From: Candidatus Kaiserbacteria bacterium
GTDB lineage: Bacteria; Patescibacteriota; Minisyncoccia; Phycocordibacterales; UBA2100
Length of the DNA: 64,000 nt
Reading direction: 5' to 3'
Assembly: GCA_016432285.1 (NCBI GenBank)
Contig: CP066682.1
Location: 666,274-730,273 of the forward strand
The notes below the pieces were generated by a model. It worked only from the letters and a program-made list of their open reading frames with translations, was not told where the DNA came from and did no database searches. Of this stretch, positions 1 to 64,000 are shown one piece after another (the first letter of the stretch is position 1; each line of letters starts with the position of its first letter). The translations under genes were made by a program, and so were the position numbers.

Positions 1-2292
1 TTGCTTCGTCTTGGTGGTGATCGACATGGTCTTGATGCCGCTGCCGCCCCTGCCCTGGGTTTTGTATTCGGAAAGTTTCGTCTTTTTGCCGTAACCGGTG
101 GAAGAAAGCACCAAGAGCTCTGCCTCCTTCATGTCTTTCGAGACGACGCCGGAGCCGACGACCGAATCGCCGCTTCCGAGCTTGATGCCGCGCACTCCCG
201 CTGCCTGCCGACCCATTTCGCGCACGTCTTTTTCGGCAAAACGGATCGACTGGCCCTTCGCGGTCACCAAAACCGCATCGTCGCCCTTGCGGACAAACTG
301 CGCCGAGATCAGGGCATCGCCCTTGTCGAGCGTGATCGCGATGAGGCCGCTGCGACGCACTTCCGTAAACTTGTCGGCGGAGGTTTTCTTTACCGTGCCG
401 CTTCGAGTGGCCATCAAAAGCGCGAGACCTTCACTCCCCTTCACGCTCTTTGGCATCGCGAGGATCGAGGTGATCGTCTCGCCCTGCTCAAGCGAAATGT
501 AATTCATGATCGACTTGCCCTTGGTGGCGCGGCGTCCTTCGGGAAGATCATACATCTTGAGCTGGTACACCTTGCCGCGATCGGAGAAAAAGAGGAGATC
601 GCTGTGCGCGGAGGCCGTGAGAAATTGCGTAACGAAATCTTCCTCCTTGGTATCCAAATCGACGACTCCCACCCCGCCGCGCTTTTGCCGGCGATACTCC
701 GCGGGATTCGTGCGCTTGATGTAGCCGCCGGAGGTGAGGACCAGCACCGAATCCTCGTCGGCAATGAGATCCTCGGCGGAGAGAATCGTCGCGCCGCGCT
801 TCACGATCTTCGTGCGGCGGTCGTCGCCATACTTCTCGACCGTTTCGCCGATCTCCTTCTTGATGAGATCCAAGAGTTTCTTCTCGCTTTTGAGGAGCGC
901 GCGCAGCTCCTCGATGAGCGCCTGCACGGCCTTCAGCTCGTCTTCGATTTTTTTGCGCTCGAGACCGGCGAGCTTTTGCAAGCGCATGTCGAGAATCGCC
1001 TGCGCCTGGAGCTCGGAGAATTTGAACTTCGACATAAGTCCCGCGCGCGCGTCGTCCACGTCTTTCGACTTTTTGATGAGCGCGATGATCTCGTCGATGT
1101 GATCGAGTGCCTTCTTGAGACCGAGGAGGATGTGCTCGCGCGCCTCGGCGATCCGAAGGTCGTACTTCGTGCGGCGCGTCACCACCTCCCGGCGGTGCGC
1201 GATGAAATGCTCGAGGAGCGCCTTGAGGGCGAGCGTCTGTGGCACGCCGTCGACGAGGGCGACGATGTTGTAGTGGAAGGTCTCCTCAAGCTGCGTATGC
1301 TTGTAGAGATAATTGAGTACGGTCTGCGCGTTGGCGTTGTTTTTGAGCTCGATGACAATGCGGATGTCCTTGGTGCTCTCGTCGCGGATGTCGCGCACGC
1401 CTTCGAGCTTCTTCTCGTGCACGAGGTCCGCGACTTTCGTGATGAGGTCGGCTTTCACGACGCGGAATGGGATCGAACTGATCACGATCTGATAGTCGCC
1501 CTTTTTGCCTTCGGCAATCTCCGCATCGCCGCGCACCACGACGGGGCCGCGGCCAGTGGCGTATGCGTGCGCGATGTCTTTCTGGTTGAACGCAATGCAG
1601 CCCGTCGGAAAGTCCGGGCCCTGCACGAACTGCAACAAATCTTCAGTGGTGGCGTCGGGATTCTCGATGAGGTGCACGGCCGCCTGGCAGACTTCGCGGA
1701 GATTGTGCGGCGGGATGTTGGAGGCCATACCGACCGCGATGCCGAGCGTACCATTCAGCAAAAGATTCGGGATCGCCGCCGGGAGCACCGTGGGCTCTTG
1801 CTTGGTGTTGTCGTAGTTGGGGCGGAAATCAACCGTCTCTTTTTCGATGTCGCGCAGCATCTCGCCCGCGAGCCGCGACATCTTGGCCTCCGTGTAGCGG
1901 TACGCGGCGGCGGAGTCGCCGTCGATCGAGCCGAAGTTGCCCTGACCCACGACGAGCGGATACCGCATCGTAAAATCTTGCGCCATCTTGACCATCGCGT
2001 CGTACACGGCCGCATCGCCGTGCGGGTGGTATTTGCCGATCACGTCTCCCACGACGGTCGCCGATTTGCGCGTCTTCGCGCTTACCGTGAGCCCGGCCTC
2101 GTGCATCGCGTAGAGGATGCGCCGGTGCACGGGCTTCAGCCCATCGCGCACGTCCGGCAAGGCTCGCGCGGTGATCACCGACATCGCGTAGTCGAGATAC
2201 GACTCGCGCATTTCGGTGGAGATGGATCGCGGGACGACGCTCGCGGGCGCAGGGGTTGGAGCGGCCTTTTTCTCGTCCTTTCCTCGCGCCAT
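1..2292 (-). CDS. gyrA: DNA gyrase subunit A, N-terminal ~764 aa; C-terminus lies beyond window start
   Basis: Minus-strand translation from ATG at 2292 gives MARGKDEKK...[43 protein letters not shown], the canonical GyrA N-terminus with active-site region; reading frame is open to position 1. The 1..2355 plus ORF in the track is its antisense shadow. Confidence 0.95.
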
Positions 2293-2527
2293 GTTCTTCT
2301 AATTATAGCAGAAAACGGCCCCGGATGCACGCCCAAAAACGCCCTGTTTGATTGACAATTCGGGCGCCGGGCGTAGCCTTTTTCACAGTACAAAGTGTTC
2401 CGTATGCGTGTTGCGTCTTTGCGTTTTTCCCCCTTGGAGAAACCACCATGACCAACAAGGCATTCAGAAAGATTCCGCTTTCGGATCGGGTCGAGATGGT
2501 ACGCGCTCTCGCAAAGCGAGGTGGGTC

Positions 2528-2956
2528 ATGACAGATCGCCCCGTTTTGAAGCACGAGGAGATTGTTTTCGGGCCCATCACGGAGTGGGAGCTCGACAACG
2601 CGCTCGCATATGTGCGTGATCCGGATGGAAAATATCGCGCCGAACTCGATCGCGACCTTCTGCGCATCCTCGCGAATACGGCCAACGAGCGCCGGAGCCA
2701 CGGCGTGATACTGCCCCTCCTTGTCGCACGCGTCGTGCAGGACGGCATCCCCTTCTCCAACAAGACGGAGAAACCGAAGTACGAAGCGTACAAGGGAGCC
2801 ATCATGAAAATCTTCGCCGACCGCTACGCGAGGAGCGACCTAGCGAAGGATCGGCAGCGTGCGAGCGCTGCCGAAACGAGGCGGACCGGCAAGAAGAAAA
2901 AAGGCGAGTATCCGAAAGATTCTCGCAAAAAGCACAAAGACCAGTTCACCTTCTGA
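2528..2956 (+). CDS. hypothetical protein (142 aa, Lys-rich C-terminus)
   Basis: ATG at 2528 (MTDRPVLKHEEIVFGP...) within track ORF 2348..2956; host-like codon usage; followed by a GC hairpin terminator at 2962-2999. No recognisable family. Confidence 0.45.
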   Translation: MTDRPVLKHEEIVFGPITEWELDNALAYVRDPDGKYRAELDRDLLRILANTANERRSHGVILPLLVARVVQDGIPFSNKTEKPKYEAYKGAIMKIFADRYARSDLAKDRQRASAAETRRTGKKKKGEYPKDSRKKHKDQFTF

Positions 2957-2961
2957 ATCGA

Positions 2962-2999
2962 GGGCTCGCCGCACGCGTGCGGCGAGCCTCCTCTTTATT
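2962..2999. terminator. GC-rich hairpin (GGCTCGCCGCAC-GCG-TGCGGCGAGCC) plus T-run between convergent genes
   Basis: Perfect 11-12 bp inverted repeat followed by TCCTCTTTATTG; sits between the stops of 2528..2956(+) and 2995..3348(-). Confidence 0.55.
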
Positions 3000-62512: not shown

Positions 62513-62986
62513 CTACTCTGTTTTCTCGGGCGCGGCCGCTTCCTCCGGCTTGTCGGAACTCTCCGCTTCGGCCGGTGCGGTGGCCTCTTCTGCCTTCGTT
62601 TCCGCTTCGGCTTTCACCTCGGCGTCGTGCGCTGCTTTCGCTTCAGCCTTCGCTTCCTGCTCCGCCGCCTTTTCAGCAGCCTCTTCCTTCGCTTCCGCTG
62701 CCGCCTCTGCGGGCGCCTTGTAGGCCGGGAGGATGTTGATCTTCTTTGCGTTCAGCACACCGAGCGCAACGAGCATGTTGTGCACGGTGGCCGAGGGCTT
62801 CGCGCCCACCGACATCCAGTATTTCACGCGATCCTCCGCAAGGCTGCGCTCCTTGGTCTTTGGGTTGTAGGTGCCGACTTTTTCGACGATGCTCCCGGTT
62901 TTGGGACTTTCGGTGTGCTCCGCAACCACAATGCGAAACGAGGGCTGGTTGGTCCTCCCGGTGCGCTGTAAGCGGATCTTCAACAT
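62513..62986 (-). CDS. rpsP: 30S ribosomal protein S16 with Ala/Glu/Lys-rich C-terminal extension
   Basis: MLKIRLQRTGRTNQPSFRIVVAE...; start at internal ATG 62986; C-terminal ~70 aa low-complexity AEAKAEEAAEK repeats. Confidence 0.85.
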   Translation of the reverse strand: MLKIRLQRTGRTNQPSFRIVVAEHTESPKTGSIVEKVGTYNPKTKERSLAEDRVKYWMSVGAKPSATVHNMLVALGVLNAKKINILPAYKAPAEAAAEAKEEAAEKAAEQEAKAEAKAAHDAEVKAEAETKAEEATAPAEAESSDKPEEAAAPEKTE

Positions 62987-63008
62987 ATGTTGCGGCACTC
63001 TACCAGAA

Positions 63009-63344
63009 CTACTGCCGCTCTACAACCACGGCCGTGCCGTACGCGAGGATCTCGGTCACGCCGCCGCCGATGCCGGTCGCATCGTACCGCACCCCGATCA
63101 CCGCATTCGCGCCCATCTCTTCCGCCTGTTTTTTCATGCGCTGATACGCGTCGGCGCGCGTGCGCTCGCTCAAGGCAGTGAAGAGCGTGATGTCGCCGCC
63201 AAAGATGGTCTGGAGGCCGGCGCCGATGGTGCCGATGATGGAGCGTGATCGCACGACGATCCCGCGCGCCATGCCGATGTTTTTCGCGATATGGTAGCCC
63301 GGCAGCTCAAACGCGGTCGTTACCATCGAGTCCTGGATTGCCAT
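63009..63344 (-). CDS. YbjQ/UPF0145 family protein
   Basis: 111 aa; conserved ...GANAVIGVRYDAT...EILAYGTAVVV pattern of the YbjQ family. Confidence 0.7.
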   Translation of the reverse strand: MAIQDSMVTTAFELPGYHIAKNIGMARGIVVRSRSIIGTIGAGLQTIFGGDITLFTALSERTRADAYQRMKKQAEEMGANAVIGVRYDATGIGGGVTEILAYGTAVVVERQ

Positions 63345-63366
63345 ACCCTGGAGTATACCAAATCGG

Positions 63367-64000
63367 CTATTTCGCCACTCGCTCAGCCTCCTCGAGCTTC
63401 ACCGACAAGAGTTTCGAAACGCCGTCGCCGCCCATGGTCACACCGTAGAGCTCTCCCGCAGCGGCCATCGTCGCTCTGTTGTGCGTGATCACGATGAGCT
63501 GCGACTTTTGACCGAGCTCCTGGATCATGTCGGCGTAGCGCTTGCTGTTGGCCTCGTCGAGCGCGGCGTCCGTCTCGTCGAGAATCAAAAACGGTGGGGG
63601 ATTCACCTGCGTCATGGAAAAGATGAGCGCGATCGAGGTGAGCGCGCGCTCGCCGCCTGAAAGCACCTCGAGGCCACGGATTTTCTTCCGGGGCAGCGAG
63701 ACCGAGATCGAGAGCCCTGCGTACAGCTCTTCTTCGTCCTCGAAATCCTCCTCGTCATCCTCGTCGGTATCAAAATCCGTCTTCGCGGCGCGGCGCTTCG
63801 GCTGCTCTACCGTGAGTTTGGCTTCCCCGCCCCCAAAAAGCTTGGTAAAGAAACTCTTCAGCGCGTCGTTGATGTGCTTTAGGCCGTCGTGGAAGCGCGC
63901 GTCGATCGTTTTCTCGAGCTCCGCGATGATGTCCTTCAGCGAGGCTGCGCTCTTTTCGAGATCGTCGAGCTCTTTTGCCAGAAATTCGTCGCGCTCCTTG
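63367..64000 (-). CDS. smc: chromosome segregation protein SMC, C-terminal ATPase part; N-terminus beyond window end
   Basis: ABC signature LSGGERALTSIALIF and Walker B/D-loop PFLILDETDAALD; reading frame open to 64000. Confidence 0.8.
   Translation of the reverse strand, partial: KERDEFLAKELDDLEKSAASLKDIIAELEKTIDARFHDGLKHINDALKSFFTKLFGGGEAKLTVEQPKRRAAKTDFDTDEDDEEDFEDEEELYAGLSISVSLPRKKIRGLEVLSGGERALTSIALIFSMTQVNPPPFLILDETDAALDEANSKRYADMIQELGQKSQLIVITHNRATMAAAGELYGVTMGGDGVSKLLSVKLEEAERVAK

Follow-up and report, generated by a model that had tools for sequence, protein, structure and literature searches.

We found that promoter-like -10 hexamers lie immediately upstream of the start codons of about half of the genes in a stretch of 64,000 nucleotides (nt) of a Candidatus Kaiserbacteria genome (contig CP066682.1, positions 666,274 to 730,273; hereafter, the window). 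We propose that the default mode of expression in this region is leaderless or near-leaderless: messenger RNAs (mRNAs) would begin at or next to the AUG, from sigma-70 promoters adjacent to the start codon, and translation would be initiated independently of a Shine-Dalgarno (SD) sequence. Judging from the sequence evidence presented below, we give this reading a probability of about 0.85.

Genes were called by codon-usage score, and each open reading frame (ORF) was assigned its first in-frame ATG as the start, blind to any upstream motif. With these starts, a TANNNT hexamer ended 6-10 nt upstream of 21 of the 60 window genes, compared with a mean of 3.24 (standard deviation 1.71, maximum 10) when these upstream regions were shuffled 1000 times with dinucleotides preserved, and with 3-4 genes in each of the neighbouring 5-nt offset windows. 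The distance between hexamer and ATG showed a sharp peak at 6-10 nt (7, 5, 3, 4 and 3 matches, respectively) and was flat elsewhere; the background at 1613 other ATGs of the window was about 0.0045 TANNNT per offset. The enrichment of the hexamer next to start codons is far above chance. This bears out the proximity to start codons reported by the initial annotation of this sequence, while its description of the pattern as pervasive has to be narrowed to about half of the genes.

The window was compared with 73 related loci, 24 of them Kaiser-like (316 genes) and 49 from other Paceibacteria (661 genes). The same peak was found in the Kaiser-like loci, with 120 matches at 6-9 nt, and a weaker one in the other Paceibacteria, with 193 matches. 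Two controls were run through the same pipeline. In a stretch of E. coli, the proximal hexamer preceded 2 of 40 genes under the first-ATG rule and 1 of 41 annotated starts. In the first 50 kb of Deinococcus deserti plasmid 3, it was found at 4 of 39 annotated starts, 23 of which carried an SD; since this plasmid stretch is unrepresentative of the leaderless fraction of that genome, it served only as a second SD-rich comparator. Profile coordinates and public gene calls were used to curate three starts (MBL hydrolase, pyrF and pth), after which 29 of 63 window genes (27 with a strict TANNNT and 2 with TGA/CGG-TATATA) carried a -10 hexamer whose end lies 6-10 nt upstream of the ATG. These genes, termed class L, represent 57% of the window genes that lack tight coupling to a preceding gene. 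All of them start with ATG, and none has an SD core 4-11 nt upstream.

To characterize the hexamer, 152 sites from the window and the 24 Kaiser-like loci were aligned on it. The resulting logo reads TTG, a spacer of 17-18 nt, T (51%), G (59%), any base, and then T-A-t-A-A-T, with T1, A2 and T6 invariant, as in sigma-70 -10 elements. The extended -10 motif TGn preceded 61 of the 152 sites (40%) versus 5.9% of all 6438 TANNNT hexamers present in this DNA (P=8e-35), and a TTG at a spacer of 16-18 nt was present in 40 of them (26%) versus 6.2% (P=4e-15). The sigma-70 holoenzyme starts transcription 7-10 nt downstream of the -10 element, and its choice of start site prefers a pyrimidine at -1 and a purine at +1 (Y-1/R+1). 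Our sites fit this rule, with a pyrimidine at -1 in 73% of them. Moreover, first genes were defined as those with a divergent neighbour or with upstream space exceeding 40 nt, and tightly coupled internal genes as those starting between -10 and +5 nt relative to the preceding stop. The hexamer was found before 127 of 290 of the former but only 1 of 30 of the latter (Fisher P=2.5e-6). This comparison of first with internal genes is the one by which GeneMarkS-2 separates promoters from ribosome-binding sites (RBSs) (PMC6028130). Altogether, these results support the view that the start-adjacent hexamers are sigma-70-type promoters, which would initiate at the AUG or 1-4 nt before it.

The assigned starts were corroborated in several ways. 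In most class-L genes, no other ATG, GTG or TTG lies between the upstream in-frame stop and the assigned ATG. Profile matches begin close to it in FtsA (residue 5 to profile position 2), TrxB (2 to 1), PyrE (6 to 2), TsaD (1 to 1) and ValS (13 to 2), and FtsZ orthologues start with MSKQVK or MTKQVK exactly at the ATG, with divergent DNA upstream. Independent Logan assemblies of this population yielded gene calls whose product lengths are identical to ours, both for class-L genes (in amino acids, aa: pyrF 276, pyrE 209, purH C-terminal half 323, trxB-like 307, ClpP-like 187, YbjQ 111, S16 157, and ORFs of 174, 193, 190 and 293) and for two genes outside the class, namely a coupled 196-aa ORF (orf18381) and a KH protein of 107 aa. 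The start of MBL hydrolase at 3969 rests on profile coordinates and that of pyrF at 16554 on profile coordinates plus a public gene call; the longest ORFs of these two genes (3352-4494 and 15724-16989, both on the minus strand) overextend by 160 and 145 codons, respectively.

All 13 promoter/start pairs cited in the initial annotation exist. Hexamer and spacing were exact for nine of them (gyrA, MBL hydrolase, lepB, ftsA, ftsZ, pyrE, DsbA-like, PD-nuclease and dnaG); for rpsU, ClpP-like and tsaD the hexamers were right and the spacings off by one, the actual values being 10, 7 and 7 nt. Only the GATAAT described 0-1 nt from pth had been misread: a TGA-TAGAAT overlaps the first ATG (6923) and is separated by 10 nt from a later ATG (6911). 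The Pth profile sets in at this later ATG, which we take as the start instead of 6923.

We then asked whether orthologues keep the motif, by aligning N-termini and scoring the nearest ATG for a TANNNT 5-10 nt upstream. The hexamer was retained in rpsU (48/51), MBL hydrolase (21/24), pth (40/49), lepB (17/22), pyrE (10/13), pyrF (10/13), purH (8/11), trxB (31/52), gyrA (7/11) and ftsZ (30/73), and was rare in rpsA (0/14), ybeY (2/24) and the hisS-like gene (5/25). In the alignments of ftsZ and rpsU, a conserved -35 element (cTTGcc) is followed after about 17 nt by TGcTAnnnT, and 8-10 variable nt separate the latter from the ATG. In both, protein conservation sets in exactly at the ATG, and the discriminator varies at a fixed spacing. 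The promoter footprint of ftsZ is kept in the Kaiser-like loci; in more distant Paceibacteria, the same promoter lies 11-27 nt from the ATG, which would give a short SD-less leader. Thus, the logo, the absence of the motif before internal genes, its conservation and the checks on the starts all argue for the leaderless reading that the initial annotation had advanced.

The distant ftsZ leaders (L036, L040, L041, L053-L055, L058, L059) often end in (A/T)CCT right before the ATG, and the ABC transporter gene of the window has a matching ACACCT-ATG (32676-32681). This sequence may represent a non-SD start context or a context for the transcription start site (TSS).

A minority of genes are organized differently. 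The rpoB promoter is TTGACG-17-TATACT, as had been noted, followed by an SD-less leader that is about 115 nt long rather than the 107 nt first given. rpsA, which encodes S1, has a TTGCAC-17-TATAGT promoter and a conserved leader of about 97 nt, found in the window (4808-4939, plus strand), in L069:2470-2600, in L048:139-269 and in nine other loci. Its stem comprises 7 pairs, all with compensatory changes among the 12 sequences, around a conserved loop, GACAGACACGGTAGCGCAAG. rpoD has neither a proximal -10 nor an SD. No Rfam match was obtained for the rpsA or rpoB leader at E<=1. We regard the rpsA leader as a candidate autoregulatory ribosomal-protein leader. An AGGAGG at 4913-4918 was considered as the SD of rpsA and rejected, as it forms an arm of the conserved leader stem. 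Between trmD and rpoB, the order is the SD-led 68-aa ORF, a strong intrinsic terminator, the rpoB promoter and the leader.

Since rpoB, rpsA and rpoD carry leaders without an SD, the organism must also translate SD-less leadered mRNAs. This lends some credit to the explanation that competes best with ours, namely that the start-adjacent promoters are real but secondary, and that most functional mRNA is leadered and SD-independent, arising from upstream promoters or read-through. The latter would be feasible for several class-L genes that lie 0-40 nt behind a co-directional gene. However, it is the ATG-proximal promoter that orthologues keep, at a fixed spacing, and neither ftsZ nor rpsU shows a second conserved upstream promoter within 60 nt. 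Furthermore, the 47 nt between the divergent ATGs at 18959 and 19007 leave no room for other promoters. We therefore regard predominantly leadered expression of class-L genes as unlikely.

Several considerations nevertheless weigh against leaderless expression as the default. The TSS positions are predicted from sequence, as are the leaderless mode of translation and the reinitiation discussed below. Given that SD-less leadered mRNAs are translated, a missing SD is by itself no proof of leaderlessness, and class-L genes may have additional promoters further upstream. About one quarter of the window genes fall in no class. The spacings of 9-10 nt, about one third of the sites, exceed the usual gap of 6-8 nt and imply leaders of 1-4 nt. 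Finally, the 4 of 39 starts scored in the D. deserti control leave the sensitivity of the pipeline uncalibrated on a known leaderless genome.

SD sequences were scarce throughout. Under the first-ATG rule, an SD core preceded 11% of the window genes; the corresponding share in the two control stretches was 46-48% (48% in E. coli), and with annotated starts it was 59-63% (63% in E. coli). Strong SDs were limited to about 3-10% of genes, mostly small accessory ORFs. Strong SD pentamers were 3-4 times more frequent than permuted pentamers, yet the genes they preceded numbered only 3-4 of 54 in the window, 4-6 of 316 in the Kaiser-like loci and 7-17 of 661 in other Paceibacteria, and they were not enriched before called genes relative to all ATG-ORFs of the window. 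Before internal genes, an SD core (GGAG, GAGG or AGGA) at 0-10 nt was found in 0 of 9 cases in the window and 0 of 52 in the Kaiser-like loci; the same tetramers occurred further upstream at 1-3 per offset. Internal genes instead start at -4 (ATGA), at -1, or between 0 and +5 nt relative to the stop of the preceding gene, as in TAGTATG, TAATATG, TAGATG and TAATCAGTATG, the last found at the rpoB-rpoC junction. Such junctions also connect a six-gene operon encoding a group-4 [NiFe]-hydrogenase or Hyf-like membrane complex (NuoB-like, HyfB, HyfC/NuoH-like, HyfE, HyfF and a NuoC/D-like large subunit). The few strong SD sites suggest that the genome may retain an anti-SD. No 16S gene was present in the window or in 80 related loci, and no 16S 3' motif was found in the related loci. 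Avoidance of internal GGAGG was considered as a proxy for the anti-SD and set aside as uninformative: the motif is not avoided here, nor in D. deserti.

With SDs nearly absent, another translation signal might be expected, and the hexamer does sit in the RBS zone, 6-10 nt from the ATG. It could in principle be an AT-rich landing site for the ribosome or S1 on leadered mRNAs, comparable to GeneMarkS-2 group B. However, such a signal should also precede internal genes, only 1 of 30 of which carries it, and an RBS would need neither the flanking TGn (40%) nor the TTG at a 17-nt spacer (26%), nor would it be expected to keep T1, A2 and T6 invariant exactly as a sigma-70 -10 does. We consider a translation signal of this kind very improbable. 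Even less credible is an artefact of AT-rich intergenic DNA and biased or wrong starts: the starts of the initial annotation were indeed picked by eye and the first-ATG rule did misplace MBL hydrolase, pyrF and pth, but motif-blind starts, shuffles and neighbouring offsets (21 of 60 versus 3.2 and 3-4), the E. coli control (2 of 40), public gene calls, profile N-termini and orthologues all speak against it.

How, then, would leaderless expression operate in this organism? A typical promoter would consist of an extended -10 (TGn-TAnnnT) and a weak -35 TTG, with the hexamer ending 6-10 nt before the ATG. Spacings of 6-9 nt would place +1 on the A of the ATG, and longer ones 1-4 nt upstream. The leaderless mRNAs would engage in no SD interaction and would presumably be recruited through 70S or IF2-dependent binding to the 5'-terminal AUG. 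For internal genes, which start between -4 and +5 nt relative to the preceding stop, termination-reinitiation would be the presumed route of translation. Long SD-less leaders are found in a minority of genes (rpsA, rpoB and rpoD), and a few small accessory ORFs retain a strong SD.

The features of the window are collected in Table 1.

Table 1. Putative start-adjacent promoters (class L), leadered genes, SD-led ORFs and operon junctions of the window; spacings are counted from the motif to the start codon
Feature	Positions	Strand	Elements
gyrA	2290..2307	-	TGC-TATAAT, 9 nt, ATG
MBL hydrolase	3967..3982	-	TATAAT, 7 nt, ATG 3969, 160 codons inside longest ORF
pth	6909..6927	-	TGA-TAGAAT (6922-6927), 10 nt, ATG 6911
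lepB	7135..7151	+	TAGAAT, 8 nt, ATG; TTGGTG with 18-nt spacer
rpsU (bS21, 103 aa)	9000..9018	+	TGG-TACAGT, 10 nt, ATG
ftsA	9760..9774	+	TACAAT, 6 nt, ATG
ftsZ	11107..11124	+	TGC-TATGAT, 9 nt, ATG
trxB-like	12348..12364	+	TGG-TATTCT, 8 nt, ATG
purH C-terminal half	14300..14314	-	TAAAAT, 6 nt, ATG
pyrE	15711..15728	-	TATAAT, 9 nt, ATG; hexamer within pyrF 3' end
pyrF	16552..16568	-	TGA-TAGGAT, 8 nt, ATG 16554, 145 codons inside longest ORF
Kinase-like ORF (174 aa)	17786..17803	-	TACGCT, 9 nt, ATG
Divergent pair	18957..19009	- and +	TGC-TAGAGT, 6 nt, ATG 18959 (-); TGA-TAAAAT, 6 nt, ATG 19007 (+)
P-type ATPase	22174..22188	-	TATAAT, 6 nt, ATG
GT2 glycosyltransferase	23757..23771	-	TATTCT, 6 nt, ATG 23759
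SemiSWEET	24105..24119	-	TGA-TACACT, 6 nt, ATG
293-aa ORF	26479..26494	-	TAGGAT, 7 nt, ATG
ClpP-like	29358..29373	+	TATAGT, 7 nt, ATG 29371
tsaD	32717..32734	+	TGA-TATATA, 9 nt (or TATAAC, 7 nt), ATG
valS	34211..34226	+	TGC-TATCAT, 7 nt, ATG
PrsW	36410..36425	+	TACAAT, 7 nt, ATG; hexamer in valS 3' end; valS TAA adjoins ATG
DsbA-like	37614..37630	+	TATACT, 8 nt, ATG
PD-(D/E)XK nuclease	39217..39232	-	TGG-TATACT, 7 nt, ATG
196-aa ORF	47492..47506	+	CGG-TATATA, 6 nt, ATG
dnaG	53380..53397	-	TAAACT, 9 nt, ATG
rpsP (S16)	62984..63002	-	TGG-TAGAGT, 10 nt, ATG
YbjQ	63342..63357	-	TGG-TATACT, 7 nt, ATG
rpoB promoter and leader	60741..60891	-	TTGACG-17-TATACT (60891-60863), leader about 115 nt, no SD
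rpsA (S1) promoter and leader	4808..4942	+	TTGCAC-17-TATAGT (4808-4836), leader about 97 nt, conserved
336-aa ORFan, ATG 27628	27616..27630	+	GAGGAGGA, 4 nt, ATG
54-aa ORF, ATG 39297	39285..39299	+	AAGGAGGA, 4 nt, ATG
Usg-like protein	48848..48860	+	GGAGGA, 4 nt, ATG 48858
DUF397 protein	49446..49467	+	AGGAG, 8 nt, GTG 49459 (or ATG 49465)
84-aa ORF, ATG 53532	53520..53534	+	AAGGAG, 6 nt, ATG
68-aa ORF 61148..60942	60913..61162	-	AAGGAGGA, 6 nt, ATG 61148; intrinsic terminator 60935-60913
rpoB-rpoC junction	57551..57561	-	TAATCAGTATG, no SD
Group-4 NiFe-hydrogenase-like operon	40414..47401	-	internal junctions TAGTATG, TAATATG, ATGA, no SD

The window has a G+C content of about 60% and contains 3 tRNAs and no rRNA. 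Annotation with NCBIfam showed that its core genes are divergent and often shortened: ValS has 732 aa and lacks the C-terminal domain, RpoB has 1060 aa, and S1 has four domains. PurH is represented by the C-terminal AICAR formyltransferase half alone (13331-14302, minus strand, 323 aa, profile positions 198-510 of 510), with no IMP cyclohydrolase half adjacent to it. Among GTDB species representatives, the closest relatives of FtsZ are metagenome-assembled genomes (MAGs) of Candidatus Kaiserbacteria/Paceibacterota, with 75-85% identity. The organism is an ultrasmall bacterium of the Parcubacteria class (Paceibacteria) within the candidate phyla radiation (CPR, or Patescibacteria). Exact look-ups of FtsZ (395 aa) and of MBL hydrolase (205 and 365 aa) returned no record, a result that carries no information.

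Six ORFs of the window are SD-led. The four strong SD sites singled out earlier (before the ATGs at 27628, 39297 and 53532 and before the 68-aa ORF) are present, and we found two more, before the Usg-like and DUF397 genes. The 54-, 84- and 68-aa ORFs belong to no family. In the Kaiser-like loci, the SD-led genes (n=9) encode mostly small proteins with signal-peptide-like N-termini. The suggestion that an SD flags acquired or specially regulated genes was borne out insofar as these are small accessory ORFs; a foreign origin was not, as their GC content at third codon positions (GC3) is native-like and their codon fit slightly lower, which is weak evidence for it. On these grounds, the SD looks like a rare feature of accessory genes. 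The Usg-like (PF06233, 48858-49154) and DUF397 (PF04149, 49459-49725) genes are small and adjacent, both on the plus strand; these families are typical of Proteobacteria or Actinobacteria rather than of CPR, DUF397 being mainly actinobacterial. A separate low-GC patch (24298-27420, 53% versus about 60%) adjoins the genes for tRNA-Ser (25151-25236) and tRNA-Glu (25354-25425). Its ORFs of 230 and 293 aa have a GC3 near 0.5 and score negative for codon-usage fit, and its neighbour is the 336-aa SD-led ORFan. This patch may be an acquired island.

The architecture proposed here resembles a known one, GeneMarkS-2 group C, in which Mycobacterium tuberculosis, Streptomyces and D. deserti likewise carry a Pribnow-type TANNNT 6-8(-10) nt before first genes. 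Group C was reported for 90% of Actinobacteria and 97% of Deinococcus-Thermus, with a predicted leaderless share of 25-50% of transcription units and a measured one of 167/262 in D. deserti (PMC6028130); the lineages reported do not include CPR. The share in the window is 57% of uncoupled genes. While the remaining genes of group C genomes, internal ones included, use SDs (PMC6028130), 0 of 61 internal genes do so here. We would therefore describe the window as group C-like with a twist, in that internal genes also appear to dispense with the SD.

Other systems share individual traits with the window. Haloarchaea such as Haloferax volcanii reportedly have mostly leaderless mRNAs and translate leadered ones without an SD, and they would share with it the leaderless majority, SD-less leadered translation and coupling through stop-start overlaps. 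Unlike the window, they use TATA/BRE promoters about 26 nt upstream and still have SD motifs before internal genes. In Bacteroidetes (group B), initiation is said to be SD-independent, with the anti-SD occluded by bS21, bS18 and bS6. As in the window, the SD is almost unused and bS21 is unusual (here 103 aa), but their mRNAs are leadered and an A-rich signal precedes all genes, whereas we find a putative promoter that is missing before internal genes. Coupling by termination-reinitiation or 70S scanning has reportedly been described elsewhere, and the internal starts at -4 to +5 nt from the upstream stop resemble those systems; E. coli coupling is normally helped by an SD inside the upstream gene, whereas none is present here.

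The closest parallel comes from the same class of organisms. Tsurumaki et al. 2022 detected an anti-SD in only 48% of Parcubacteria 16S genes and described an S1 of 3-4 domains and an enlarged bS21 in CPR; they proposed no alternative initiation mechanism and did not mention leaderless mRNAs (PMC9297842). In our full-text search of non-subscription literature, no leaderless expression was described for CPR, Patescibacteria, Parcubacteria, Saccharibacteria or TM7x; the term and these taxa met only in reference lists. A tentative generalization, which we hold to be somewhat less probable than its opposite, is that Kaiserbacteria-like Paceibacteria are essentially SD-free, combining leaderless first genes with bare reinitiation; that this state enabled, or followed, the loss or occlusion of the anti-SD in about half of Parcubacteria; and that residual SDs mark recently acquired accessory genes. 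The link to anti-SD loss is attractive as a conjecture.

CPR/Patescibacteria represent a large part of bacterial diversity and are nearly all uncultured, and knowledge of them comes only from MAGs with automatic annotation. Should half of their genes be leaderless and the SD nearly unused, start prediction driven by RBSs would be unreliable for CPR. Promoters could be read straight from the sequence beside start codons, and expression constructs for the few cultivable CPR strains should be built without a leader. Leaderless expression would also provide a functional counterpart to the reduced ribosomes of CPR and the anti-SD loss of Parcubacteria, and it would bring a further deep branch of bacteria into the discussion of whether leaderless initiation is the ancestral state.

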